Origin: Botryllus schlosseri
Taxonomy: Eukaryota
Assembly (NCBI GenBank): GCA_051294905.1
Contig: CM119371.1
Coordinates: forward strand, 32,800,001-32,864,000
Direction of reading: 5' to 3'
DNA length: 64,000 nucleotides
The position numbers were made by a program, and so were the translations under genes. The first letter of the stretch is position 1; every line of letters starts with the position of its first letter. Shown in pieces: positions 16,557 through 60,299 of this stretch. The notes beneath the pieces were generated by a model. It was not told where the DNA came from. It saw nothing but the letters and a program-made list of their open reading frames with translations, and searched no databases.

Positions 16557-19173
16557 CATAGTGTCCTATATGGTGTCGACACAAGCAAATCTCACGGTTC
16601 AATGAAATTGTATCACGTCACAATTTCCATTTGGCTACAGGCAATTTGACGGTTATTTTTGACCGGCTTGCCGAGCAATAAATTTGATGAATCGGGTATC
16701 AATCGAAAGCTAACTCTGCACTGATTACGAAAATATAAATTTTATTCCACTCATGGCCCTGGAACCCCCACAATCAGCCCCAAATTATTCATTGTTGAGT
16801 AGATTGGCAGTGTGACGCAACAATGCTGTCTGGCGAAACGAGAGAGAAACTCAAGAGCAAGGATGCGGCCGAGCGGCGAGAGTGGGATCAGCTGACGTCG
16901 CGGCAATAGCTATGTGCAATTATGGATAACTAACCTAGCTATACTTAGACGGAAGGATCTCTATAAGTTGAAGGATATTGCAGGAAAATTCGTAGGTCCC
17001 AAATACATTCTGTGGACCCAGTTCTACCTTTACAAATCAAGGAAAGGCTGGTAATGTGTGCTCGCTTTTAGCGAAGCGCCTATAGAAAGTATCAACAGCG
17101 CCACGCATCTCTGGAGCCCTGCGCAACAAGCGGGCTGAGGTAATCGATATCATAATAATCTGACATATCCAATGTAGACTACTTGGACGTAGCCTACATA
17201 TCTCTATCAGCTGAAGGATATTGCGCGAAAATTGGTAGGGACCAAATGCATTCTGTGGACCCAGTTCTACCTTTACGAATCAAGGAAAGGCTGGTAATGT
17301 GTGCTCGCTTTTAGCGAAGCGCCTATAGAAAGTATCAACAGCGCCACACATCTCTGGAGCCCTACGCAACAAGCGGGCTGAGGTAATCTATATCATAATA
17401 ATCTGACATATCCAATGTAGACTACTTGGACGTAGCCTAAATATCTCTATCAGTTCAAGGATAATGCGCGAAAATTGGTAGGGCCCTAATACATTCTGTG
17501 GACCCAGTTCTGCCCTTCAAAGTCAAGGAAAGGCTGATAAGGCGTGCTCGCTTGTACCGAAGCAAATAGAAAAAGTATCAACAGCGCAGCGTTTCTCTGC
17601 GACGCGATTGCACATAGCTATTGCCGCGACGTCAGCTGATCCCACTCTCGCCGCTCGGCCGCATCCTTGCTCTTGGAGCAAACCCGTTTTACACTCTGCT
17701 GAATATCCATGTAGCAATACTCAGACGCCGGAAACATTATCCGGTATGGCCTGGACCGTTGAGGAGTAAGCTTATATTCCCTGTCAAGTCCTCGTCGAAA
17801 TTACTGGTAAAGCGACGGAAGATAATGATTTTATGGGATTATTATATCATTTGATTGCCTCAGTTGATACATTTGGCTACGTTTAAAACGTCAATATGTA
17901 CTTCAGCATTGTGGCATTGCTGGGCATCGTGCACAGTACATTAATATAGGCTATCACTTCATTGAAAGATAGGGTTGGAATTAGCAATATGACGTCACGT
18001 GACGTCACGAGGTTCACGTTCGTGTTCACACAGAACCTTTCAAAAAGGTTCGCGTTCACACGAACCTGAACCTTTCAGAGGTTCACACCATCCCTAGTGG
18101 TTTCCATCTGATATCAATATACGTTGCATTAATTCGCGCGCGGCACGAAGAAAGAATTTTGAATAGCATAAATCTTCTTAAAAATAATATTGTTCATGCT
18201 GCTTTACGAAAAATTTTTAAGCCTACTGCCAGCCTTCAAAATTCCGGACATTTAGGCATATTTTAGAAATTCCTCCCGGACGCCGATTTTTCAGTGAAAT
18301 TCCGGACATGTCCGGGAAATTCCGGACGTATGGCAACCCTAGGCTAAGGCAATCGATATCATAATAATCTGACATATCCAATGTAGACTACTTAGACGTA
18401 GCCTACATATCTCTATCAGCTGAAGGATATTGCGCAAAAATTGGTAGGGCCCTGATACATTCTGTGGACCCAGTTCTACCCTTACAAGTCAAGGAAAGGC
18501 TGGTGTGTGCTCGCTTTTAGCGAAGCGCATAGAAAAAGTATCAACAGCGCCACGCATCTCTGGAGCCCTACGCGACAAGCGGGCTAAGGCAATCGATATC
18601 ATAATAATCTGACATATCCAATGTAGACTACTTAGACGAAGCCTACATATCTCTATCAGCTGAAGGATATTGCGCGAAAATTGGTAGGGCCCTAATACAT
18701 TCTGTGGACCCAGTTCCACCCTTACAAGTCAAGGAAAGACTGGTGTGTGCTCGCTTGTACCGAAACGCATAGAAAAAGTATCAACAGCGCAGCGTTTCTC
18801 TGTGGCGCGGTTGCACATTGCTCTTGCCGCGACGTCAGCTGATCCCACTCTCGCCGCTCGGCCGCATCCTTGCTCTTGAGCTAGTCTCTCGTTTCGCCAG
18901 ACAGCATTGTTGCGTCACACTGCCAATCTACTCGACAATGAATAATTTGGGGCTGATTGTGGGGGTTCCAGGGCCGCGAGCGGAATAAAATTTATATTTT
19001 CGTAATCAGTGCAGAGTCAGCTTTCGATTGATACCCGATTCATCAAATTTAATGCTCGGCAAGCCGGTCAAAAATCACCGTCAAATTGCCTGTAGCCAAA
19101 TGGAAACTGTGACGTGATACAATTTCATTGAACCGTGCGATTTGCTTGTGTCGACACCATATAGGACACTATG
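16557..19173. mobile_element. Foldback-type non-autonomous element with ~364-bp TIRs, P-superfamily/Galileo-like
   Basis: Termini CATAGTGTCCTATATGGTGTCGAC/GTCGACACCATATAGGACACTATG. TIRs 16557-16920 and 18810-19173. 7-bp TSD GTTCCAT (16550-16556, 19174-19180). CATAG ends with a 7-bp TSD fit the P superfamily. Confidence 0.8.
16935..18810 (+). repeat. 240-243-bp tandem repeat in two blocks (about 16935-17590 and 18342-18790)
   Basis: TCAAGGAAAG recurs at 17037, 17280, 17523 (period 243) and at 18489, 18729 (period 240). Confidence 0.92.
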
Positions 19174-19937: not shown

Positions 19938-22101
19938 ATATATTTCGGGGACTGGACAAGATTCTCCGGGTTATCTCGGAGTCTGGGATTGGGATCCCCG
20001 GAGTCGCAGGGACTTTGCCTCAGAGACCAAAGTTGCCGGAGGGACTCGGAGTCTCGAAAAGCAGACTCCGCTCATCACTGTCTCATAGCTTACTATTCTT
20101 GTCAAACACTGATAAATGACCCTACCATAGTAACTCAAAAGTCTCAATCACTGATTGATCATATCATTACGAAAAACTACTCTCAGCACGACTCTGGTAT
20201 ATTGATCGGTGACATATCTGATCACCTGCCAATATTCTGTAAGATTGCTAATACCTATCAAGGAATTAACACAAAAATATCTTTTATTCGCGACTATAGA
20301 AGACTCTCAATTGATTTGTTTTCATCCGAACTTACTGAAGCATTAAATGACCTACAACGCGACTGCAGATCCGAACCCAGTGACATTACCTAATGCTTTA
20401 CCCCATTAATTAGCTGTATTAATTCACTGTTGGACAAATACGCAACTCTTCGCAAACTAACGCGCAAAGAACGCCGGTTCTCGACCAAGCCTTGGTTCAC
20501 TCATGCAATCCGTAAATCTGTAGCAACTCGACGCGTACTAAAACAAAGGGTCATTTTCCCAGCCCTACTCCCAAATGACACACTCGAACATATGCGTCAC
20601 AGTTTCCTTGTCGTTTTACAACTGTTTTATAGTTGTAGGCCTATCTGTCCATTAGCCATGCTTCCTAAGTTTAGGCGTCCTCGGAGGACATTGCAGATTT
20701 CCAGATAAAGGAGGACATTGGGTAATCCTATTAGATCGCTATCCGTAATTGATGTTCGTCGTGTTATAGAATGCCTACAAGGCATATGACGTAACTAAAA
20801 CTAGGGATGGCGCGAACGTTATGCTCATTTAGAGTGCGGTATGTGATGATAGATGATCATTACGATATTCGTATTTTGAAGATAATCTTGGTGATTTCAA
20901 TATCAGAAATATCAGGATATACATCAATCCAAACAATTTTTATCAAAATTGCTCTAGTGTCAGAATACTGCGGACCACTTGCAGCATCACGGTGGCACCG
21001 AGTAAGGGGATATTACAGGAAACCAAGATAAACTCCTTACATCGTCCAATATTGTACTGCTTCTCGATAATTGTACCGGAGATATCACGTGATTAAGTTG
21101 GAAGTAATAGATTGGCTCGTTTCTGTCACTTTATACGTGCCTGGCCCGAAAACGTGCGTCAGCTTGAGATAATGATCGTAGATCTATTCACGGTCGTATT
21201 AAAATTCACATTGTCCCACGAAAGCGTGAATATACTCAGATCCAATGATGCATTTTTCCAGTATCTTTTTTTAAAGATTATGGTAGGACATTTCGATCCA
21301 GCCACTCATACCAAACGCAGGCCTATACTTAAACTCCGCGGCCGGAAACCTATAGCTCTCGAGTCGCATTTTGCTCTTTTGATGGTAGCGTATCGCTACA
21401 TAGAAATGATTGTTTGCAATTATCAAGCAAGTCATTTGTCACGAGAAAAATCCGTTGTAATTTATTGCATGAGTTTTATCGAGAAATATGCATGTTTCAG
21501 TGGCACACAACGCAAATCACTGTGACGTGGTTCTAATCTAACGACCGGCACAACTTGGGAGCAGGCTAGTCGGGACACGCAAAGGTGGCTAGCCTTTGGT
21601 TACTGAACAATAGCTATTTGTTCAAACGTTTGAACCTCACGGCGCTAGTAAGGGCTGATCGGGAAGTGTGCACTACATTAAGAAAAGTGCGCCTATACGG
21701 AGTGACTGATATGTGTCTATAATTTGAGAAGTTTCCAAAGGATTTAATTATGAGGAGGAGTCATGAAATCGAAATGTAGCCTACGTAATATTTCATTAGA
21801 ACTGAATTATATTAACGAGGCACACTAATCGCCGGATAAAACTGACGGATATCGTAGTGATTTACATAACTCCGCTTAAATATCGGTGACAAAATTTGTC
21901 TGACTGAGCCAACAGTTCCTTCTCAGAGACGCGAAGTACGAATTTATTAGGGCGATTTTTTTGACACATAAAAAGAGTCGGGAAGATGTCAAAGTTGCAC
22001 GGTTAGGTCGAAAAAATTCAAAATGGTTTACAACGTCAAAATTTGGAAACCTGCATCTCGTTTGCATCGTATATGCGCTGTCGGTGAACTTATCAATTGA
22101 C

Positions 22102-43913: not shown

Positions 43914-44840
43914 ATCGTAATATACACATTACGGACAGGCCACAGTATGTTACGCAGGAGCGAAAAAGCACTTTTCAAGCTCCACCCAAATAAACGCTTG
44001 GCTTGTGTCATGCATAGGATGTTCAACCAAATCTTTGGGGATATTCAACCTCTAGACCTCCAATCCGTGTACAGATTATTACGTTTCTGGTTTTGCTATA
44101 AAGCATTCAACATTGTCAAACGCACACAGTCCATCCATAGAGAACAAAGTCCGGCATTATGCGTTTCACGTACGTTCCAGAATATCTAACGACGAACGCA
44201 CGACTTATCTAACAGTTTTTCTCGGTTCCCTAGTCAAGTGTGTTCTAGTCGCGCGAGGAGCAAAATTTATTGATGTAAATGTATGAGTTTTGTCCAAATA
44301 ATATAGTTACTTGCAAGATTACTGTTAATATGTCATCCTCTGCAGCCCATCTGACCAGAAATACCGGTCGAGCTAAAAGAGGTGGTGACATCGAACATGT
44401 ATGTTATTGTAGGTAGAATGTAGAAGTGTACTTTTTGAGGAATGTTTCTGCCACACTGAGAAGATTGGTTTATATACAGTAATCTGTGAGCGGGCTCGAC
44501 GGGGATGACACTAAGTCACACGCCGAAAAATTTAAAGTTTAATCAATCCGGCTAAAATATATATTTACATTTTGTGGATTTACTTCAGGGGTCGCCAACT
44601 CAAAACGGGTCGCGGGTCACTTTTTCAGTTTCGTAGCGCCCGCGGGCCGCATGAATTCAATATATATCTAAAAACTAGGCAACCACGTTTTAAAACTCTA
44701 CGTCCGCAGAACGCCGTGATACCTAACATATGCAATGGGCATACTGACCACGAAAGAAGTTATATTTTAATAAAGGAATACAAATTCAACAAAAAATCAT
44801 TATCATCAATTTCATTTTATTTTGAACTCTGAGCTATGCA

Positions 44841-45845
44841 AGTAGTTAGTATGATCGGTCGTGATTCGCCATAGGGTTCTTATGGGATCTCTGGTGAGGT
44901 GCCGCGAAACTCGTGTTGGTGATGGCACCCTTTTGACCCCCCCTTCCGCTGATGAGGTGCCATGTGTTCTTATGGGATCTCTGGTGATGGTACCCTTTCG
45001 GGTATAGGCTTCGTCGGTGATGTGCCGTGAAAACTCGTGTTGGTGATGGAACCCTTTCAGACCCCCTATCGCTCGTGATGTGTCATTGTTTCTTACGGGA
45101 TCTCTGGTGGTGTACCATTGGTTCTTATGGGATCTCTGGTGATTCGCCATGTGTTCTTATGGGTGCGGTCGTGACTCGCCATTTTTGCTATAGGCTGCGG
45201 TCGTGATTCGCCGTGAAAACTCGTGGTCGTGACTCGCCTTTTTTGCTATAGGCTGCGGCGGTGATTCGCCTGTCATGTATTCTTACGGGATCTGTGGTGA
45301 CTCGCCGTGTGTTCTTATGGGTGCGGTCGTGATTCGCACTTTCAGGCATCTCTCGCATGTCGTACTTTCGCGTATAGGCTGTGGTGACTCGCCACGCGTT
45401 CTTATGGGTGCGGTCGTGATGCGCACTTTCAACCATCTCTCGCGTGGTATTGAATAGTCACCAATAATAACCGCACAAACGGAAACGTGGCTTGTTGTGA
45501 GGATTAAGCAGCGCGACCTATATTTCGAATGACCTGCGCGCTGAATTGTTTCACAGCCAACCGCGGTGGTCGTGACTCGCCTTTTTTACTATCGGTGGTG
45601 ACGGTGATTCACCTGTCGTGTATTCTTACGGGGTCTGTGGTGACTCGCCATGTGTTCTTATGGGTGCGGTCGCATGCGGCTATTGCGTCTTATGGCGGGG
45701 GTGGTGAGCGGCTATTGATGCTAACACGAAACCCGGGGTGGCGAGCGGCACTTATTTCTTATGGCGGCGGGTCTTATTTCTTATGGGTGCGGTCGTGATT
45801 CGTACTTTCGGTATAGACTGCGGGCGGCATGTCGTACTTTCAGCA
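44841..45845 (+). repeat. GC-richer subterminal mosaic of short repeats (probable original TIR); mirrored at 58014-59018
   Basis: Recurrent modules TTCTTA(T/C)GGGATCTCTGGTG, TTCTTATGGGTGCGGTCGTGATTCGC, GTGACTCGCC and TATAGGCTGCGG. Confidence 0.8.
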
Positions 45846-48800
45846 AAAAAGGTGTGAAATAGTTTGCCAAGTCTAGGAATCACTTGCAAGGTAATATTTT
45901 GGTATTTAGTTTACCACAGAGCCGGCGTAGACGGCGATTCGAATATCAACAATAACGACGCTCACGAATTAACACTTCAAATAGCTGTGAAATAGTTTGC
46001 AAAACCCCGCGATCGCTGACAAGATAATGTCTCGGTCATAACCATCTTTCACGACTTGGTGTCATAACCATACCGATCGCTCACGCGGTGAAATTTTAGT
46101 AATCAGTTTGTCACAGTACTTGATATCGCTGGTAAGATTTAACAAGTAACGAATAACAGACCGCGGTAACTTGAATAGCGACAAATTGTCACTTATTTCC
46201 GCTCTAACTCTAATCCTTTGTGAAGTGAACGCTTATTCAAAAGGGTGTGATATAATTTGAAAATCCAACGACCACTCACCGGATAATGCTTCAGACATAG
46301 CAATTCCTCATACCCGCTCAGAAGGTAATATTTCGGTAATTAGTTTGTCACAGAACCGTCGCAGACGGTGATTCGAAAACCAACAATTTGTCACTTGCCC
46401 GCGATCGCTATATGTTTCACACCTCGCGAAAAGTGGCTGACTTTAGTTGCGTGATAAGATCCATGAAAATATTCAATCGATGTGTTAGTTTATCAACTTG
46501 AAATGAAACTCACTACACAAATCAAGTTGAATCGTATTTGAATGTATTGATTCGACCCAACTCAAATCCGTTGACAAATCCTATTAACGCGATCTGTTGA
46601 ATCGAACGTAACCCGAATATTACTGACGCCGACTTTCAGCCGCATCGAATTATTCGCACATTCCGCGCCACTGTTTTCACACTTATAGAATCAATACCAA
46701 CTATCTCTAACCCGATAATATTCAATCATTTTGGTAATTTACCAACTTTAAATCCATTCGCGGGATGTACTAAAGGTAAATCCAAATAATCCAGAATGAA
46801 ATATTTGGACTTTGACATTGTCTGAATTGAAATATATTGACAAACATGACTGCCAACTTTCACCCAGTCACATTTCGAGATTATACTTTGAAACAATCCT
46901 TGAAACTGACAACCTCTATTCACGACTCCGTTTCCGTTTGTAAAATAGAGTTTCAGAAATACTATCGCGATATTTTAATGTGTTACTTCACACAATAGAA
47001 TCAATCAATGAAATAACACCTGTTGTAAATATTTCTAACTTGACAACCACTTGTGCGTACCGCGATCGACTTGCGACGCGATGAGTTAAATCGGAATATT
47101 TCAATCTATTTGTCGAAACCTTGAACAAACTATCAGGTCATTTTTTGTTGTAATCGAGTGAACGGAAATAGTATTACGTCTCAACATTTTAGCATCTTCC
47201 CATAAACAAAAGAGTAAAATACAAAAAACCTTGTCAAGTCAATCCGTTTGTAACTTACCCAACCAAAGCAAAAAGTATCCTTATGAAAAGTAGACAAGAC
47301 TACGCCAGTAATCACTACAATCCAAAATCCATAACAAGCTCGGTTGTATTCATATCCCTACGACGCGTCTTTTGTTTTTCAACTGTAAAAGTCGTTACTA
47401 TTTTGCAAGACAAAGTAATTACTACTTGATATATTTTATAAACCAAAGTAAATACTACTCGGTGTGTGGTTTGAGATTAACATATTACATTTGAGTATAC
47501 CGGATTTGAATGCCTGACCAACGTAGTTGAGAATTCATTTCTTACAATCAAACGCCGGTTTTACATTGAAAGGTATCATACTGTAAACATAAGGATTGAC
47601 ACATTGATTTGATATATGAGATTTTGTAATGCTCGACCACGACTTGATTATTAAATTATTCACGATAATTAGACCCGATGTTGTGGTAAAGGTTATTAGA
47701 AAATATCACTTTTGGCATCGAGTACCAGTCGAAGTGGGTGAACAATAACACCGAAAATGATAAATGCGTTTCGTGCTACTATTGATACAAGTTCATTTCT
47801 ATCAGGTGAAATAAACGCCATCACAAAACTCAGAGCATGCAAAGGTCTTGATTGATATGAATTTCGATTTGTGTCTTATGATACCAGCAAGCATTTTAGA
47901 AATATTATGATTCGTTAAACCAAAGTCGTATGTCCGATTATTAATTGATTGGAAACTTGATCACGTACCTCGATCATTACAGAAGATTATAACCCCATTG
48001 TCCGACAATCTTTTACAAAAGGATCGAAACCAAGTAACCCAAAGTCGTTGCCGTCGCATAAACAATTTGTACGACGTTTGATAATTGTACCCTATACGTT
48101 GGTGTACTAGAGATATTTGTAAAACACACTCTGGTAAAGAAATCGAAAGGATATCCTACACCTAAATCTGATAAAACCATTTTGCACTTTTTGTTCGTCA
48201 GTAGTATCCATTTTAATTTCCCCATTTCCTCTCGTCAAAGTAGATGTAATCATAGTCACTAAAGAACTTACTTGGATGTGTTTGAATTCTAGACATAGTT
48301 ATGATTTACTCAACGCAAGACCCAAGAACAACCGTAGTTAACAACCGTGCACACATATCCAAAATATCGCACACTCCACTATTCCTAAAGTACAAACACC
48401 CGATACAAAATATCACTTGTTGCGGCATCATCTTCACAATATCACCATTTTGTTTGTGTCAATTAGTTACTTTGTATGTTATCCCACAACTCTTACAAAA
48501 GTACGAAGGATATTAACATCGCACTAAGTAATTAACTTTACTCGATATTCTCGCATTACGAAACTAAAGAATGGTTGGTTAGACTCTACAAACTGTTTCG
48601 ATATCACAAGACCTTTATTGTCTGAATGGGTGTTCATGTATCTTAATAATCAAATAGTTCAACACAGAACTAGTACTAACAGAAACATCAGAGTTGTTTA
48701 CACAAAAGTTTGTATGTGTACAGTATGCGAATACCATGTGTAAGTCCGGCACAATTGCAGTATCCATTCGAGTTTAGTCAACACAAATTTATTACAACGG

Positions 48801-49789
48801 AGCCACGTAAACTTTCGTGAAAGAAAAGCATACTCACTTCCAGAGGGTTATGTCAACACCATAGCAGTTCCCCAACAACAAAGTACATATGTTTCTAGCC
48901 ACGGTCCTTACATCTTTCACATAGATCAATCTACTTTGCTAACGAAAAGTGCTGAGTCATCACATGATCGCTCTCACAACAAAACAGCTAGTAGATATTA
49001 TCATTCAAAATATTCCTAACCCTTTACACACCAGTGACAAATCATACAACGAATATGCTTTGCGGGTCGAATTGTTGTTCAGTGTCAAGTCTACCTGTTG
49101 AAACGTACATTAAATAGCGCAATCCAATTAAAACCACGAATCTATTTTCATTTCGTCACATACAGAAAAATAAATTTTCTTTCTCCAACACATACTTGTA
49201 ACCAATCGCTTTCATTAAACACACAACACCATAAAAGTATTTACTTTCTACAACATAGACATTCCGATGTAGTCAAGAAATATTTTTATTAATCAAAATC
49301 ATCGATTTCTGTTCACGGCGTTAGTGTGTGCATGTCATACCTGTGGGCCCCGTATTAAAATGGACACGACACGACTGACTGTAAGGAGATAGAAGTCTAT
49401 CACATCGATTTACATGTGGTCTTCGCTACGGTTTCAAAAAACGAATCATCTCTTTTGCATTGATCTAGACCGAGCAAGTTAGTTAATGGCCATGATTGTG
49501 TTTGTCATATGCGAATGATAGGGTTACTGTCAAATCTACATACAACAATCTTCTGACGATCATAATAGCAATTTCATTTTCCGCCCCTTCATAATTGTAC
49601 AACTCGGTAACTACGTTTAACAAGACCAATCACACTACCGGCGTTGAACACAAGATACCTACCCAAGTAAAAATATCATTCTGGTTTGGACAACTGACGT
49701 TTACCTGTGTAAAATTATCATTTTCACTTGGAGGTCCACCGTTACCTAACTAAAATACCATTGTCCTTTGGAGATTTATCGTTTACCCA

Positions 49790-50657
49790 GTGTAACAATC
49801 CCCTTTTCACTTGGAAATCTATTTTTGGCCTGAATAACAAACCCCTTTTCACTTGGAAATCTATTTTTGCCCTGGATAACAAACCTTTTTCATTTGGAAA
49901 TATATTTTTTCTCTTGGTAACAAACCTTTTTCACTTGGAAATATATTTTTTCTCTGGGTAACAAACCTTTTTCATTTGGAAATATATTTTTTCTCTTGGT
50001 AACAAACCTTTTTCACTTGGAAATATATTTTTTCTCTTGGTAACAAACCTTTTTCACTTGGAAATATATTTTTTCTCTTGGTAATAAACCTTTTTCACTT
50101 GGAAATATATTTTTTCTCTTGGTAATAAACCTTTTTCACTTGGAAATATATTTTTTCTCTGGGTAACAAACCTTTTTCACTTGGAAATATATTTTTGCCC
50201 TGGATAACAAACCTTTTTCATTTGGAAATATATTTTTTCTCTGGGTAACAAACCTTTTTCACTTGGAAATATATTTTTTCTCTTGGTAATAAACCTTTTT
50301 CACTTGGAAATATATTTTTTCTCTTGGTAATAAACCTTTTTCACTTGGAAATATATTTTTTTCTCTGAGTAACAACCCTTTTTCACTTGGGAATATATTT
50401 TTTCTCTGGTTAACAAACCTTTTTCACTTGGAAATATATTTTTTCTCTGGGTAACAAACCTTTTTCACTTGGAAATATATTTTTTCCCCGGGTAACAAAC
50501 CTTTTTCCCTGAGCAACAAACCTTTTTCACTTGCAAATATATTTTTTCCTGGGTAACAAACCTTTTTCACTTGGAAATATATTTTTTTCCCTGGGTAACA
50601 AACCTTTTTCGCTTGGAAATATATTTTTCCCTGGGTTACAAACCTTTTTCACTTGGT
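49790..50657 (+). repeat. 42-43-bp minisatellite, about 20 units (left arm)
   Basis: Unit approximately CCTTTTTCACTTGGAAATATATTTTTTCTCTGGGTAACAAA, head to tail, no spacers. Confidence 0.95.
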
Positions 50658-51524
50658 GATCCGTCGTTTACCTGAGTAAAAATATCATTTTCCTTTGGGG
50701 ATCTGGCGTTTACCCAGTGTAACAATACATTTTCTCTTGGTCATCTAGCTTTTCCTAGTGTAACAAAACCATTTTCATTTTTGAAATCTGACAACCACAC
50801 CGACAATTTGATATATTTGTATTTTCTTACAGCGAACAGCGACAAAATATACACCAACAACGACTCCGATACATTTGTCTAATCAAATATTCACTTGTGT
50901 TGGTGCATCCCATCAAAATCGTCGGTTACCCACATGCAATATCCTCTTGTACACAGAAATGCATGTTTTGGAAAATTGGACAATAGGCTTCGATAGTTCT
51001 GTGATGTCCGGGTTCGTGCTTTGGATTTTCCAGATTCAAAATGTCTGAATAAAACACCCCCTCGTCGATGGTTGGTATGTGGATAACGATGTTCGGAAAA
51101 CGGTTGGATTTATGTCACCCATCGCGATAACAATTCCAGGTCGAGTTTTCCCCCGCGCGTTTACTATATTGTGTCTTTATTGGTCAATGTATGTCTCGAC
51201 ATTCAGTTTGAAATCGGAAACCCTGATAAGTATGTAACCGGATCCGGATATCAACTCTGAATCGATAAACCAATGAACAATATTCAAAGTAAACATGTTA
51301 CACCCTGTGTTCCCACGAAAAAATACCATCCAGACATACGTCGCGCTTGTTTGCCCACATCAGTATACGCGTAAATGGAGGTGTGTGACATTGCATGCAA
51401 TGTGTTGGTATACAAACATCGATCCACAGACATTATCATAGCCGGTAGTTTTGATGTAGATCGAATGTCATCACACCCGATAACAATGTCATACCAATAA
51501 GCCACATTGCAATGACTCTGAGTC

Positions 51525-52419
51525 AATCTGAAGCGTGACATAAAGACACACAAACATCGAACCGTAACATGGGTTATTCGCACGACGGTGAAAGTGAACT
51601 ATACAGCATATACCAATAGAGCGTTCACAGTCATTCACCACGCACAATCACATACCATGGTTTTTGTTGGATATGTACGAAACCAATAAATCGATACATT
51701 TCTGTTCCTTCTACGTCAATAATACAAGCGTCATTCCAATGCATCGCTCGAATGTAAGGTTCGTCGGGTGTAAAATCCATGTCAAATAACACCAAAGTGT
51801 GCTTTCCGTGTTTTATTATTTCCACCGACGCTTCTTGTCTGTGTCGTAACACTATGGTGCGGGGAGTTGAAAAACGGCGGATTGTGAAACGGATTGACAT
51901 GACCAACAGAATCGACGTCAATAGCCTTGTGACGATGTCTTTTCAAAATGATACCGATCTCTTGTGGCGATGACCGTTTCGAAATGTCACCGGACGAACT
52001 GAATCCTTACGATGATGTGTTTTATGATTGCGTGTGAAATCGCGAGGTAGTGTTCTATTGTGGTGTACGATTGCAGTCTTCATTCCACAGAAACACACCT
52101 TATTGGATCACAGTATCAGTCCGAGATTTGCATAATCACTGTTCACGATATTTGTCTGGAGTCGTTATGTGGGAGTAGCGACATCCATGCATCGTGACTG
52201 AAAGACTGATCGCAATCAATCCGAGCACCACTTCGATAGTTCACCATGGTCAAACGCTGCAGCAGAAAACTTCGGTGTGGACAACACATTGATCGATGTA
52301 TCCAATTGGTCTGGGTGGTCTGTCCGGAGATAGGGCCATAACTATCTTGTAATGTTACAACACGATAACACAATCGAGTAAATCAGTGAACGGTGTCGAA
52401 ATATCGATGTAATAGCGCG
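51525..52419. other. Unique 895-bp spacer (loop) of the palindrome, with short minus-strand ORFs of unknown product
   Basis: No mirror match between 51525 and 52419. The minus-strand ORF 51284-51583 runs from the spacer into the left arm, and ORF 51631-51921 lies wholly in the spacer. Confidence 0.85.
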
Positions 52420-55400
52420 GACTCAGAGTCATTGCAATGTGGCTTATTGGTATGACATTGTTATCGGGTGTGATGACATTCGATCTACATCAAAACTACC
52501 GGCTATGATAATGTCTGTGGATCGATGTTTGTATACCAACACATTGCATGCAATGTCACACACCTCCATTTACGCGTATACTGATGTGGGCAAACAAGCG
52601 CGACGTATGTCTGGATGGTATTTTTTCGTGGGAACACAGGGTGTAACATGTTTACTTTGAATATTATTCATTGGTTTATCGATTCAGAGTTGATATCCGG
52701 ATCCGGTTACATACTTATCAGGGTTTCCGATTTCAAACTGAATGTCGAGACATACATTGACCAATAAAGACACAATATAGTAAACGCGCGGGGGAAAACT
52801 CGACCTGGAATTGTTATCGCGATGGGTGACATAAATCCAACCGTTTTCCGAACATCGTTATCCACATACCAACCATCGTCGAGGGGGTGTTTTATTCAGA
52901 CATTTTGAATCTGGAAAATCCAAAGCACGAACCCGGACATCACAGAACTATCGAAGCCTATTGTCCAATTTTCCAAAACATGCATTTCTGTGTACAAGAG
53001 GATATTGCATGTGGGTAACCGACGATTTTGATGGGATGCACCAACACAAGTGAATATTTGATTAGACAAATGTATCGGAGTCGTTGTTGGTGTATATTTT
53101 GTCGCTGTTCGCTGTAAGAAAATACAAAAATATCAAATTGTCGGTGTGGTTGTCAGATTTCAAAAATGAAAATGGTTTTGTTACACTAGGAAAAGCTAGA
53201 TGACCAAGAGAAAATGTATTGTTACACTGGGTAAACGCCAGATCCCCAAAGGAAAATGATATTTTTACTCAGGTAAACGACGGATCACCAAGTGAAAAAG
53301 GTTTGTAACCCAGGGAAAAATATATTTCCAAGCGAAAAAGGTTTGTTACCCAGGGAAAAAATATATTTCCAAGTGAAAAAGGTTTGTTACCCAGGAAAAA
53401 ATATATTTGCAAGTGAAAAAGGTTTGTTGCTCAGGGAAAAAGGTTTGTTACCCGGGGAAAAAATATATTTCCAAGTGAAAAAGGTTTATTACCAAGAGAA
53501 AAAATATATTTCCAAGTGAAAAAGGTTTGTTACCCAGAGAAAAAATATATTTCCAAGTGAAAAAGGTTTGTTACCCAGAGAAAAAATATATTTCCAAATG
53601 AAAAAGGTTTGTTATCCGGGCAAAAATATATTTCCAAGTGAAAAAGGTTTGTTACCCAGAGAAAAAATATATTTCCAAGTGAAAAAGGTTTATTACCAAG
53701 AGAAAAAATATATTTCCAAGTGAAAAAGGTTTATTACCAAGAGAAAAAATATATTTCCAAGTGAAAAAGGTTTGTTACCCAGAGAAAAAATATATTTCCA
53801 AGTGAAAAAGGTTTGTTACCAAGAGAAAAAATATATTTCCAAATGAAAAAGGTTTGTTATCCAGGGCAAAAATATATTTCCAAGTGAAAAAGGTTTGTTA
53901 CCCAGAGAAAAAATATATTTCCAAGTGAAAAAGGTTTGTTACCAAGAGAAAAAATATATTTCCAAATGAAAAAGGTTTGTTATCCAGGGCAAAAATAGAT
54001 TTCCAAGTGAAAAGGGGTTTGTTATTCAGGCCAAAAATAGATTTCCAAGTGAAAAGGGGATTGTTACACTGGGTAAACGATAAATCTCCAAAGGACAATG
54101 GTATTTTAGTTAGGTAACGGTGGACCTCCAAGTGAAAAGGATAATTTTACACAGGTAAACGTCAGTTGTCCAAACCAGAATGATATTTTTACTTGGGTAG
54201 GTATCTTGTGTTCAACGCCGGTAGTGTGATTGGTCTTGTTAAACGTAGTTACCGAGTTGTACAATTATGAAGGGGCGGAAAATGAAATTGCTATTATGAT
54301 CGTCAGAAGATTGTTGTATGTAGATTTGACAGTAACCCTATCATTCGCATATGACAAACACAATCATGGCCATTAACTAACTTGCTCGGTCTAGATCAAT
54401 GCAAAAGAGATGATTCGTTTTTTGAAACCGTAGCGAAGACCACATGTAAATCGATGTGATAGACTTCTATCTCCTTACAGTCAGTCGTGTCGTGTCCATT
54501 TTAATACGGGGCCCACAGGTATGACATGCACACACTAACGCCGTGAACAGAAATCGATGATTTTGATTAATAAAAATATTTCTTGACTACATCGGAATGT
54601 CTATGTTGTAGAAAGTAAATACTTTTATGGTGTTGTGTGTTTAATGAAAGCGATTGGTTACAAGTATGTGTTGGAGAAAGAAAATTTATTTTTCTGTATG
54701 TGACGAAATGAAAATAGATTCGTGGTTTTAATTGGATTGCGCTATTTAATGTACGTTTCAACAGGTAGACTTGACACTGAACAACAATTCGACCCGCAAA
54801 GCATATTCGTTGTATGATTTGTCACTGGTGTGTAAAGGGTTAGGAATATTTTGAATGATAATATCTACTAGCTGTTTTGTTGTGAGAGCGATCATGTGAT
54901 GACTCAGCACTTTTCGTTAGCAAAGTAGATTGATCTATGTGAAAGATGTAAGGACCGTGGCTAGAAACATATGTACTTTGTTGTTGGGGAACTGCTATGG
55001 TGTTGACATAACCCTCTGGAAGTGAGTATGCTTTTCTTTCACGAAAGTTTACGTGGCTCCGTTGTAATAAATTTGTGTTGACTAAACTCGAATGGATACT
55101 GCAATTGTGCCGGACTTACACATGGTATTCGCATACTGTACACATACAAACTTTTGTGTAAACAACTCTGATGTTTCTGTTAGTACTAGTTCTGTGTTGA
55201 ACTATTTGATTATTAAGATACATGAACACCCATTCAGACAATAAAGGTCTTGTGATATCGAAACAGTTTGTAGAGTCTAACCAACCATTCTTTAGTTTCG
55301 TAATGCGAGAATATCGAGTAAAGTTAATTACTTAGTGCGATGTTAATATCCTTCGTACTTTTGTAAGAGTTGTGGGATAACATACAAAGTAACTAATTGA

Positions 55401-58400
55401 CACAAACAAAATGGTGATATTGTGAAGATGATGCCGCAACAAGTGATATTTTGTATCGGGTGTTTGTACTTTAGGAATAGTGGAGTGTGCGATATTTTGG
55501 ATATGTGTGCACGGTTGTTAACTACGGTTGTTCTTGGGTCTTGCGTTGAGTAAATCATAACTATGTCTAGAATTCAAACACATCCAAGTAAGTTCTTTAG
55601 TGACTATGATTACATCTACTTTGACGAGAGGAAATGGGGAAATTAAAATGGATACTACTGACGAACAAAAAGTGCAAAATGGTTTTATCAGATTTAGGTG
55701 TAGGATATCCTTTCGATTTCTTTACCAGAGTGTGTTTTACAAATATCTCTAGTACACCAACGTATAGGGTACAATTATCAAACGTCGTACAAATTGTTTA
55801 TGCGACGGCAACGACTTTGGGTTACTTGGTTTCGATCCTTTTGTAAAAGATTGTCGGACAATGGGGTTATAATCTTCTGTAATGATCGAGGTACGTGATC
55901 AAGTTTCCAATCAATTAATAATCGGACATACGACTTTGGTTTAACGAATCATAATATTTCTAAAATGCTTGCTGGTATCATAAGACACAAATCGAAATTC
56001 ATATCAATCAAGACCTTTGCATGCTCTGAGTTTTGTGATGGCGTTTATTTCACCTGATAGAAATGAACTTGTATCAATAGTAGCACGAAACGCATTTATC
56101 ATTTTCGGTGTTATTGTTCACCCACTTCGACTGGTACTCGATGCCAAAAGTGATATTTTCTAATAACCTTTACCACAACATCGGGTCTAATTATCGTGAA
56201 TAATTTAATAATCAAGTCGTGGTCGAGCATTACAAAATCTCATATATCAAATCAATGTGTCAATCCTTATGTTTACAGTATGATACCTTTCAATGTAAAA
56301 CCGGCGTTTGATTGTAAGAAATGAATTCTCAACTACGTTGGTCAGGCATTCAAATCCGGTATACTCAAATGTAATATGTTAATCTCAAACCACACACCGA
56401 GTAGTATTTACTTTGGTTTATAAAATATATCAAGTAGTAATTACTTTGTCTTGCAAAATAGTAACGACTTTTACAGTTGAAAAACAAAAGACGCGTCGTA
56501 GGGATATGAATACAACCGAGCTTGTTATGGATTTTGGATTGTAGTGATTACTGGCGTAGTCTTGTCTACTTTTCATAAGGATACTTTTTGCTTTGGTTGG
56601 GTAAGTTACAAACGGATTGACTTGACAAGGTTTTTTGTATTTTACTCTTTTGTTTATGGGAAGATGCTAAAATGTTGAGACGTAATACTATTTCCGTTCA
56701 CTCGATTACAACAAAAAATGACCTGATAGTTTGTTCAAGGTTTCGACAAATAGATTGAAATATTCCGATTTAACTCATCGCGTCGCAAGTCGATCGCGGT
56801 ACGCACAAGTGGTTGTCAAGTTAGAAATATTTACAACAGGTGTTATTTCATTGATTGATTCTATTGTGTGAAGTAACACATTAAAATATCGCGATAGTAT
56901 TTCTGAAACTCTATTTTACAAACGGAAACGGAGTCGTGAATAGAGGTTGTCAGTTTCAAGGATTGTTTCAAAGTATAATCTCGAAATGTGACTGGGTGAA
57001 AGTTGGCAGTCATGTTTGTCAATATATTTCAATTCAGACAATGTCAAAGTCCAAATATTTCATTCTGGATTATTTGGATTTACCTTTAGTACATCCCGCG
57101 AATGGATTTAAAGTTGGTAAATTACCAAAATGATTGAATATTATCGGGTTAGAGATAGTTGGTATTGATTCTATAAGTGTGAAAACAGTGGCGCGGAATG
57201 TGCGAATAATTCGATGCGGCTGAAAGTCGGCGTCAGTAATATTCGGGTTACGTTCGATTCAACAGATCGCGTTAATAGGATTTGTCAAAGGATTTGAGTT
57301 GGGTCGAATCAATACATTCAAATACGATTCAACTTGATTTGTGTAGTGAGTTTCATTTCAAGTTGATAAACTAACACATTGATTGAATATTTTCATGGAT
57401 CTTATCACGCAACTAAAGTCAGCCACTTTTCGCGAGGTGTGAAACATATAGCGATCGCGGGCAAGTGACAAATTGTTGGTTTTCGAATCCCCGTCTGCGA
57501 CGGTTCTGTGACAAACTAATTACCGAAATATTACCTTCTGAGCGGGTATGAGGAATTGCTATGTCTGAAGCATTATCCGGTGAGTGGTCGTTGGATTTTC
57601 AAATTATATCACACCCTTTTGAATAAGCGTTCACTTCACAAAGGATTAGAGTTAGAGCGGAAATAAGTGACAATTTGTCGCTATTCAAGTTACCGCGGTC
57701 TGTTATTCGTTACTTGTTAAATCTTACCAGCGATATCAAGTACTGTGACAAACTGATTACTAAAATTTCACCGCGTGAGCGATCGGTATGGTTATGACAC
57801 CAAGTCGTGAAAGATGGTTATGACCGAGACATTATCTTGTCAGCGATCGCGGGGTTTTGCAAACTATTTCACAGCTATTTGAAGTGTTAATTCGTGAGCG
57901 TCGTTATTGTTGATATTCGAATCGCCGTCTACGCCGGCTCTGTGGTAAACTAAATACCAAAATATTACCTTGCAAGTGATTCCTAGACTTGGCAAACTAT
58001 TTCACACCTTTTTTGCTGAAAGTACGACATGCCGCCCGCAGTCTATACCGAAAGTACGAATCACGACCGCACCCATAAGAAATAAGACCCGCCGCCATAA
58101 GAAATAAGTGCCGCTCGCCACCCCGGGTTTCGTGTTAGCATCAATAGCCGCTCACCACCCCCGCCATAAGACGCAATAGCCGCATGCGACCGCACCCATA
58201 AGAACACATGGCGAGTCACCACAGACCCCGTAAGAATACACGACAGGTGAATCACCGTCACCACCGATAGTAAAAAAGGCGAGTCACGACCACCGCGGTT
58301 GGCTGTGAAACAATTCAGCGCGCAGGTCATTCGAAATATAGGTCGCGCTGCTTAATCCTCACAACAAGCCACGTTTCCGTTTGTGCGGTTATTGTTGGTG

Positions 58401-59018
58401 ACTATTCAATACCACGCGAGAGATGGTTGAAAGTGCGCATCACGACCGCACCCATAAGAACGCGTGGCGAGTCACCACAGCCTATACGCGAAAGTACGAC
58501 ATGCGAGAGATGCCTGAAAGTGCGAATCACGACCGCACCCATAAGAACACACGGCGAGTCACCACAGATCCCGTAAGAATACATGACAGGCGAATCACCG
58601 CCGCAGCCTATAGCAAAAAAGGCGAGTCACGACCACGAGTTTTCACGGCGAATCACGACCGCAGCCTATAGCAAAAATGGCGAGTCACGACCGCACCCAT
58701 AAGAACACATGGCGAATCACCAGAGATCCCATAAGAACCAATGGTACACCACCAGAGATCCCGTAAGAAACAATGACATATCACGAGCGATAGGGGGTCT
58801 GAAAGGGTTCCATCACCAACACGAGTTTTCACGGCACATCACCGACGAAGCCTATACCCGAAAGGGTACCATCACCAGAGATCCCATAAGAACACATGGC
58901 ACCTCATCAGTGGAAGGGGGGGTCAAAAGGGTGCCATCACCAACACGAGTTTCGCGGCACCTCACCAGAGATCCCATAAGAACCCTATGGCGAATCACGA
59001 CCGATCATACTAACTACT
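52420..59018 (-). repeat. Right arm of the giant inverted repeat (6,599 bp)
   Basis: Begins GACTCAGAGTCATTGCAATG (52420). Mirror coordinate sum is 103944 inside the tandem array and 103859 outside it. Confidence 0.97.
53287..54069 (-). repeat. 42-43-bp minisatellite, about 18 units (right arm)
   Basis: Inverted counterpart of 49790-50657. It is 85 bp shorter and has a different order of unit variants. Confidence 0.95.
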
Positions 59019-60299
59019 TATGCACGATACCTCGAAAAGCTTTTCAGCGACTAAGGAGTCGATATTCGGGCTAGCGAGATAAATTACTAGCTGAAAGGCC
59101 ATCTCCACGTTAAGCTTGATCTTGTGGTAAAGCCCAAAGCAAGTGGTTCTCAAAACGTATTTACACACACACCCTTTTTGATACTGAAAAGCTTTTAGCG
59201 AATAAATTAACAATATGATCTTATTGTTTCGCGTTATAGCTTATTTTGGAACGACAACAACAATATGTTGAGACTGTAGAGTGTAGTCCATTTCAGCATT
59301 TCAAAATGGTATTCTTAGCTTTCTTCCGAAATCTTGAATCAAGTCGCGGGCCGCAAAATATGACCTCGCGGGCAGCGTCTTATAGTGACCCCTGATTTAG
59401 GTAATAATTTTTGTCTCGCGTATTGGGGGTTAGGGTTGCGGAAGGTACGGTCCTGATGTTATAGCATAGAAGTATGGCATTATAAAGTCATGGGAATTAA
59501 TGTTATGAACGGCTCAGTGATGACATTGTTTTGTGACACGTGATTGAATAGTCAAGAGCTTTCTTCGTGAAAGCGGATGGAATGTCCTCTGTGCGCTATC
59601 TGACTTTAACTTGGTTTTGAGCGCAAGGTCTTTCAGTATGGAACGTGAAACTGCATGTGCACTGTGTATCAGTACCTGTGTATTGTTTGTTCGTAATATC
59701 CATGGTGTTCGTCCACTAGTATGGTCATTTACACCATCAGGCCAATCTTCTTCAATCCTACTCCATGGATGCTGACTTTTATCACGGTCCACTTCAAGAC
59801 TTTTACAATACACCGCTTACACGGATGATATGGCGTATACTTGTGTAGCAGACTAGCGTAGTGTGAGTACTGTAATGTCTGTGTGGTGCTGATTGGAGTA
59901 TAAGCAATTTATGGTTGTATTAAGTTTGACATGAGATTAAATGCATATAATTTAAGCTTGGATATACTTGATGACATACTAGTAGCGGGTCGCCGACGGG
60001 ATAGCTTTCGAACCAGCATATTTAGTTATCCTACTCAGGCTTTATGGGGGACGCTTAAGTATTATATATAATTTCGGTATGCAGCATGGAAATGTGCAAG
60101 TGTGTATCGACATTTGAAATTTTTCAGACTCCCATAGTTAGGCGGTTTTGCCAGAACCGTGACAAAGGTCCTACTTTCCACTTGTTGCGACTCTGACTCA
60201 GTTATTTTCGAAAACAACAAAATTATGCAACGCGATTACGAAGGAAAATGATAATAATAATAATGATTCTAACCCGCACAATACTAACACGTCGTATCA

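Follow-up and report, generated by a model that had tools for sequence, protein, structure and literature searches.

The window analysed here, a 64,000 nt stretch of Botryllus schlosseri contig CM119371.1 (assembly GCA_051294905.1, forward-strand positions 32,800,001 to 32,864,000), contains a palindromic element of 14,178 bp at positions 44841–59018, as delimited by inverted-repeat analysis and by direct comparison of its arms. It very probably belongs to a high-copy family whose members are non-autonomous foldback derivatives, or satellites, of a Polinton/Maverick element resident in the same genome. Because its ends are shared with the resident Polinton, the foldback probably rides on Polinton enzymes. 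The element begins with AGTAGT and finishes with ACTACT, and 94% of it is palindrome. Its parts, with those of the insertion site, are as follows.

44586–44834, no strand: left portion of the interrupted interspersed repeat, which continues from 59025
44835–44840, no strand: left target-site duplication, TATGCA; uninterrupted paralogous copies of the host repeat have a single hexamer here
44841–51524, plus strand: left arm, 6,684 bp, with 10 mismatches to the right arm in the 5,892 nt outside the tandem array
44841–45845, plus strand: Polinton-like terminal region, beginning AGTAGTTAGTATGATCGG, with subterminal repeats of 32 and 123 bp and recurring boxes
49792–50789, plus strand: 41-bp tandem array of the left arm (17.4 units) and its degenerate continuation
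51525–52419, no strand: unpaired loop, 895 bp
51634–51900, minus strand: loop open reading frame of 89 codons, Met to Glu, with its stop at 51631–51633
52420–59018, minus strand: right arm, 6,599 bp, terminating ...ACTACT
53164–54067, minus strand: 41-bp tandem array of the right arm (15.4 units) and a degenerate part
59019–59024, no strand: right target-site duplication, TATGCA, matching the left copy exactly

The original prediction had described a palindrome with arms of 6,684 and 6,599 bp, a loop of 895 bp, AGTAGT...ACTACT ends and TATGCA on both sides, and all of these figures were reproduced exactly. The inverted-repeat search resolves the palindrome into outer paired blocks (44840–50258 and 53601–59019; 5,419 nt, 99%) and inner paired blocks (50583–51524 and 52420–53361; 942 nt, 100% as rounded), the latter separated by 895 nt. 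Compared directly, the arms differ by seven mismatches in the outer 4,950 nt and three in the inner 942 nt, with no indels; the 85-bp gap in arm length sits in the 41-bp tandem array, which has 17.4 units on one side and 15.4 on the other. The terminal region contains nine copies of the box TTCTTATG and three of AACTCGTG, and the nine occurrences of TTCTTATG fall within the outer 940 nt of each arm, with none elsewhere in the element. Repeats in the arms are limited to the outer ~0.5 kb and to the inner array of 0.7–1 kb, the rest being mostly unique sequence. The longest frame in an arm, according to the open reading frame listing, does not exceed 114 codons, and an Rfam scan of the window gave no match.

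A search of the 495.5-Mb, 219-contig assembly reveals that the window copy belongs to a family. The terminal 30-mer, with up to three mismatches allowed, occurs 75 times in the forward and 76 times in the reverse orientation, compared with 0 and 0 for a reversed control, which indicates a family of at least 75 full copies. Among the 100 terminus places listed, 41 pairs are found, and the two ends of each pair carry the same sequence variant. The median length of these pairs is 13,577 bp, and 28 of the 41 are 12–15 kb long. Four other copies were fetched whole and are palindromic end to end, with 95–97% identity to the window copy. The loop sequence is present in at least 40 copies elsewhere at 92–98% identity, several of them centred between paired termini. 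There are also subfamilies in which the arm body diverges quickly, so that only some blocks still align, at 77–84%. At first look, 1,171 candidates were obtained for the loop frame and 438 for the Polinton polymerase; judged from such counts, the foldbacks may number hundreds to perhaps a thousand copies. Contigs from a sequencing run deposited under a second species label contain the family at 99% identity, and it is present in runs from several studies. The exact foldback terminus had no match in viral contigs and none in metagenome contigs.

Two members of the family contain other sequences. C16:19876085–19895931 is a foldback carrying a nested element of 6.2 kb (approximately C16:19888258–19894472), with direct repeats of 535 bp at 99.4% identity and two adjoining frames, one of 277 aa and a second, of 316 aa, that finishes with a hydrophobic stretch. 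This looks like a long terminal repeat (LTR) element with an envelope-like gene. The largest terminus pair, C3:30258945–30280795, is an old, diverged palindrome with a different centre of 5.1 kb. It was considered as an autonomous form and rejected, the P-loop frame in its centre being taken as an unrelated insertion. This 304-aa frame (C3:30268630–30269541) has the P-loop GEAGAGKT, and its Walker B and TTN motifs were read as superfamily-3 viral helicase-like. It has no Pfam match above cut-off and no relative in a search of 5.8 billion proteins, and its 54 genomic matches (30–89% identity), mostly on contig 3, are unconnected with the foldback family.

A further observation concerns the block at 46752–47697 and its mirror in the right arm, which retains 84% identity between foldback subfamilies with arms that cannot be aligned elsewhere. 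The alignments of other foldback copies stop at 46710–46752, and many RNA reads match the block partially and then continue into other sequence. The block may be part of another repeat that was captured.

The insertion site of the window copy is well defined. The interrupted repeat is short and very abundant; the best 40 of 2,333 candidates were scored, at 84–89% identity. In eight of nine paralogous copies examined, the left flank passes directly into the right-flank sequence with one hexamer, and the ninth gave no alignment. These uninterrupted sites, with their single hexamer, fix both the borders of the insertion and its duplication. RNA reads and contigs heavily cover the interspersed repeat flanking the element (44586–44834 and 59025 onward).

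The duplications also extend to the family. In the first 20 pairs of the terminus-pair list, to which the check was applied, perfect 6-bp duplications are present in 20/20, all different from one another and from the TATGCA of the window copy. Palindromic copies with other 6-bp duplications were thus found, and the proposal that the palindrome is inserted as one unit is upheld by the perfect duplication that each of these 20 further copies possesses. Among the 21 duplications, those of the 20 pairs and that of the window copy, A is at position 2 in 15 and C at position 3 in 17, a bias that indicates a weak target preference. The suggestion that the element might represent a multi-copy satellite class of giant foldbacks parasitising Polintons is supported, as far as the family is concerned, by 75 and 76 termini against none in the control and by duplications in 20 of 20 pairs.

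The ends of the element had been assigned to the Polinton/Maverick type, and an autonomous Polinton with related termini had been anticipated. Such an element, of 18.3 kb and with homologous ends, is present in the same genome, and the assignment holds: the foldback combines (AGT)2...(ACT)2 termini and a 6-bp duplication with terminal homology to a Polinton that encodes both polymerase and integrase. This Polinton, at C1:5923771–5942033, is 18,263 bp long and is flanked by the duplication GCCGAG. Its inverted repeat comprises 443 bp at 99.5% and a further 196 bp; its terminal sequence starts AGTAGTGTAGTAGATCGCTCGTG..., and its ends read AGTAGTGTAGTAGATCGCTCGTGGTGTGCG. The encoded polymerase, of 1,214 aa, is of the protein-primed type (PF03175 at 32.6 bits, cut-off 25.8). 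The integrase has an rve core (60 bits) and a chromodomain, and there is also a P-loop ATPase with a weak A32-type match. The best 38 of 438 polymerase candidates in the genome were scored, at 92–95% amino-acid identity, and 33 of the 38 are stop-free. A Pfam PF03175 scan of the genome gave no match; this was discounted as a false negative, since the polymerase is present in at least 38 copies and the control was also without a match. Two Polintons were measured, at 18,263 and 15,055 bp.

In the first 30 nt, the terminus of the window foldback and that of the C1 Polinton share 25 identities in 33 aligned columns. The correspondence is closer in the C12 foldback (C12:16868495–16883233), in which the first 23 nt are identical to the Polinton and 28 of 31 aligned columns match. 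The Polinton-type terminal 30-mer occurs 29 times forward and 26 times in reverse in the genome. Four foldbacks have termini of this type (C6:17224689–17238501, C8:8529140–8542803, C12:16868495–16883233 and C14:14845948–14859778), and these pairs are recognized as foldbacks by the loop-frame match in their middle. The resemblance continues inwards, with subterminal boxes that are collinear between the foldback and the Polinton inverted repeat: AACTCGTG lies 68 and 192 nt from the end in the foldback compared with 77 and 200 in the Polinton, and GACCCCCC lies at 95 compared with 104.

Comparison of the foldback body was made with one Polinton, C1:5923771–5942033, and its 118 frames. DNA and translated similarity is confined to element positions 13–1005; deeper in the arms there is no DNA match to this Polinton at E 1e-5 and no translated match below E 1e-3. 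A different arrangement is seen at C15:753707–767608, in which termini identical to the Polinton over 30 nt are 13.9 kb apart. A segment of 701 bp taken from the middle of this pair has no match to the loop, the foldback or the Polinton, and the pair may be another kind of Polinton derivative.

The relationship between the two arms bears on how copies are made. In the window copy the arms diverge by 0.17% (direct count outside the 41-bp array), and in six of seven copies within-copy arm divergence is 0.09–0.7%. The seventh, the old C3 copy, has arms that differ by ~5%. Divergence between copies is 2–5%, compared with 0.1–0.7% between the arms of one copy. The closest other copies to the window arm have identities of 98% and 95% (best 39 of 5,057 candidates scored), and the two arms of a foreign copy score equally against it. 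Since arms are far closer to one another than copies are, they were identical when each copy was made and diverged afterwards. This suggests, from sequence comparison, that the arms are reset to identity at each copying round.

A cycle consistent with these observations can be proposed. The Polinton integrase would recognize the shared ends and insert the whole foldback in trans, producing the 6-bp duplication; the insertion pattern is observed, and the identity of the enzyme is deduced. The protein-primed polymerase of the Polinton would probably copy the foldback from both ends. The displaced single strand could then fold into a hairpin of 6.6 kb, allowing mismatch correction, or alternatively the molecule might be regenerated as an inverted dimer. 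By either route the arms would be reset at each cycle, and drift would follow only after insertion. Such a hairpin would be an extreme case of the panhandle that the adenovirus single strand forms, or of the ‘racket’ in the model reportedly put forward by Kapitonov and Jurka.

Size may be a further constraint on the family. In adenovirus, as described in PMC4189039, rearrangement affects genomes shorter than 75% of the wild type, and a helper-dependent vector of 15 kb was packaged as direct and inverted dimers. Given that short adenovirus genomes rearrange and dimerize in this way, a capsid limit is proposed, speculatively, for the large size of a parasite that is nearly devoid of genes. The 12–15 kb length of the foldbacks, 74–94% of the 15.1- and 18.3-kb Polintons, may on this speculation reflect a limit to what the capsid can package.

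The foldback shares (AGT)2...(ACT)2 ends, 6-bp duplications and terminal inverted repeats with Polintons/Mavericks, for which Barreat and Katzourakis describe, in vertebrates, ends of (AGT)2...(ACT)2 or (AG)3...(CT)3 and 6-bp duplications (PMC8097293). With the resident Polinton it shares homologous terminal sequence and subterminal boxes. It differs from that Polinton in lacking any polymerase, integrase, ATPase, protease or capsid gene (118 Polinton frames searched, E 1e-3), in being 94% palindrome, and in having a single small frame that is absent from the C1 Polinton. Its inverted repeats, at 6.6 kb, are also much longer than the 46–1,447 bp given for vertebrate Mavericks in the same account (PMC8097293). 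A Polinton, as defined in PMC5499653, must encode a protein-primed family B polymerase and a retrovirus-like integrase. The absence of both makes the foldback a dependent derivative and not a Polinton proper on the terms given there (PMC5499653).

The nearest functional parallel may be with the inverted dimers of gutless adenoviruses and with copy-back genomes; like these, the foldback appears to keep only the ends, to need a protein-primed helper and to have an inverted-dimer layout. Its length is also 74–94% of that of the helper, near what would be the packaging size, a likeness to the helper-dependent adenovirus genomes of PMC4189039. Unlike adenovirus dimers and copy-back genomes, which arise anew in culture, the foldback is an inherited chromosomal lineage with subfamilies. 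Moreover, unlike them, it would insert via an integrase, and it has a unique 895-bp loop with its own gene. A head-to-head layout of two inverted ends fits the foldback, of which only the outer ~1 kb is demonstrably Polinton-derived.

Very long arms with repetitive outer parts, high copy number and little coding sequence are traits of the Drosophila FB and sea-urchin TU foldback transposons. In Galileo and FB, the duplications are 7–9 bp and the arms consist of tandem subrepeats. The arms of the B. schlosseri foldback, unlike those of FB and Galileo, are mostly unique sequence, and its duplication of 6 bp and its Polinton ends also set it apart. In addition, unlike FB, Galileo and TU, it is close to the size of its helper, at 13–14 kb. 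The traits named above for FB and TU are nonetheless shared by the foldback with Galileo as that element is presented in PMC3573991. No description of palindromic or foldback non-autonomous Polintons was found in the literature, tunicates and ascidians included, a search that lay outside Repbase and Dfam, and on non-autonomous Polintons/Mavericks the literature search turned up only the work on Tlr1.

The loop frame is the one coding feature of the family. In most copies it is 91–93 codons long. It is uninterrupted in all six fetched copies with this loop, two of which are only 57–58% identical at the protein level, and is stop-free in 145 of 150 scored matches (the best 150 of 1,171 candidates; 85–100% identity). 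As 39 of the 801 possible single changes in the frame create a stop, a copy at 5% neutral divergence should on average have acquired ~0.65 stops. A Met-to-stop frame was also found in 20 more copies across the identity range and in five of the previously fetched copies. Over the same stretch, the other two reading frames contain 121 and 80 stops in 26 copies. Between two subfamilies the ratio of non-synonymous to synonymous substitution rates (dN/dS; Nei–Gojobori) is 0.16–0.33, and differences by codon position 1, 2 and 3 number 28, 15 and 34. Within the diverged subfamily, comparison of the members designated C6 and C16big gives a dN/dS of 0.086 (18 synonymous and seven non-synonymous changes; binomial P 1.3e-7). 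The frame is thus under purifying selection, and the family probably encodes a small orphan protein. The element had been thought to be without genes, a view contradicted by this small constrained frame.

The protein itself resembles nothing in Pfam or PDB. Its best match in PHROGs reaches only E 0.18–0.27, and the ESM Atlas returned only bacterial look-alikes below threshold. A profile of the loop protein has a best E of 0.37 against the 118 Polinton frames, and the frame is absent from the C1 Polinton. All 150 loop-frame matches are more than 20 kb away from any of the 38 polymerase loci. Speculatively, the protein may serve the replication or packaging of the satellite or its escape from silencing.

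Two raw single-cell RNA runs were mapped on the left half of the element, 3–4% of each run being read. Depth along the arm is low in both, with a strand-specific peak at 50876–51149 (19.2 versus 0.7 in one run and 10.7 versus 0.2 in the other). This peak is read as directed out of the loop, under the strand convention assumed for such libraries and with the two arms indistinguishable. An index of sequencing runs listed no RNA run that contains the element. There is an AATAAA 450 nt downstream of the loop frame, the position of which disagrees with the read peak. The pattern is compatible with a transcript carrying the loop frame, although such sparse sampling does not allow a decision between expression and silence.

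Several points weigh against the interpretation of the family as a Polinton satellite with a gene of its own. Mobilization in trans is deduced from shared ends and from coexistence, that is, from at least 38 polymerase copies, 33 of them stop-free, alongside young foldbacks. No Polinton with exactly the terminus of the window copy was found, and the window subfamily departs from the sequenced Polinton at several of its 30 outermost positions. The ~5.7-kb body of each arm shows no recognizable kinship with the single Polinton compared, so that its descent from such an element is conjectural. The identity of the arms could stem from gene conversion in place. With regard to the loop frame, the sample in which intactness was scored was picked by protein search, which favours open frames. 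Among close copies dN/dS is 0.54, and the frame is conserved no better than its flanks. Outside the family the protein is without relatives, a search of 1.84 billion representatives having given one 91-aa relative and a spurious WD40 match, and its AlphaFold model is poor (pLDDT 44, all-beta). RNA over the loop frame is thin, at 2.3 and 1.6 sense versus 0.8 and 0.1 antisense.

The first alternative is that only the integrase of the Polinton is used, through excision and insertion or through replicative integration without protein-primed copying, and that the arms are kept alike by gene conversion or by hairpin-mediated repair in place. Shared ends would suffice for an integrase, sequence variants are common to the two arms of each copy, and long inverted repeats are known substrates for conversion. 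The old C3 copy, however, has arms that are only 93–96% alike, with many indels, and such divergence indicates that arms do drift in place. The narrow size distribution is also left unexplained. Mobilization by the integrase alone is consequently rather unlikely, if still to be reckoned with.

The foldback might instead belong to another cut-and-paste superfamily with 6-bp duplications and resemble a Polinton at its ends by chance. IS3EU and Dada are other superfamilies that generate duplications of this length. Foldbacks with repetitive subtermini are moreover described elsewhere, for example Galileo, of the P superfamily (PMC3573991). Against this, 23 of 23 terminal bases are shared by a foldback subfamily and an autonomous Polinton, and the boxes lie at matching distances. 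No transposase frame was seen in any copy examined, the genome itself not having been scanned for IS3EU or Dada transposases. A chance resemblance of this extent is very improbable.

The original prediction had favoured a snap-back, or defective, Polinton genome, formed when one end was copied back on itself. Polinton-type ends, a clean duplication and near-identical arms would all be expected of a de novo copy-back genome integrated once. It is difficult to reconcile with at least 75 copies of the same architecture and body, among them subfamilies that are only ~77–84% identical, or with a body unrelated to the Polinton compared, and there is scarcely any likelihood that the window copy arose in this way. 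The architecture is inherited across diverged subfamilies, and so is not that of a fresh one-off event. Simple copying back of a single Polinton end is likewise not borne out, as resemblance to the Polinton compared is limited to the outer ~1 kb of the arms; with no match to it in the inner ~5.7 kb, a one-end copy-back is invisible in the sequence of today. The family may have originated from a short non-autonomous element that was duplicated in inverted orientation long ago. Long-read chimeras can create palindromes, but a false hairpin join in the assembly is effectively excluded by the matching yet different duplications in 21/21 copies and by the uninterrupted paralogous sites. Sequencing runs from several studies, and data labelled as a second species, also contain the family.

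A more ambitious version of the satellite interpretation is also conceivable, in which the foldback is a true polintovirus satellite: a size-constrained inverted dimer, replicated by the helper via a full-length hairpin, packaged in helper capsids and encoding its own helper-modulating protein. This version is possible, although on balance doubtful.

Elsewhere in the window, an open frame at 19938–20393 ends in ...DISDHLPIF, which we take to be typical of a LINE endonuclease domain.

To our knowledge, the replication of Polintons/Mavericks has never been directly shown, nor has virion formation in animals. A dependent element that retains only Polinton ends, at such abundance, is a natural reporter of helper activity. 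New here are the tie to a sequenced helper, the 21/21 duplications, the paralogous empty sites, the size argument and the loop gene. The near-identity of the arms argues for a step that involves a single-strand hairpin or an inverted dimer, and the narrow size for a packaging limit, while a conserved orphan gene of its own suggests a conflict between satellite and helper akin to that of virophages or phage satellites. Palindromes of 13–14 kb could form a few per cent of the B. schlosseri genome, provided that the copy number is close to the candidate counts. Palindromes of this size and abundance are hot spots for rearrangement and for hairpin RNA, and are relevant to annotation. If the foldback is indeed a helper-replicated satellite, its lock-step arms would be the first genomic footprint of Polinton replication, and arm divergence would date insertions as LTR divergence does.

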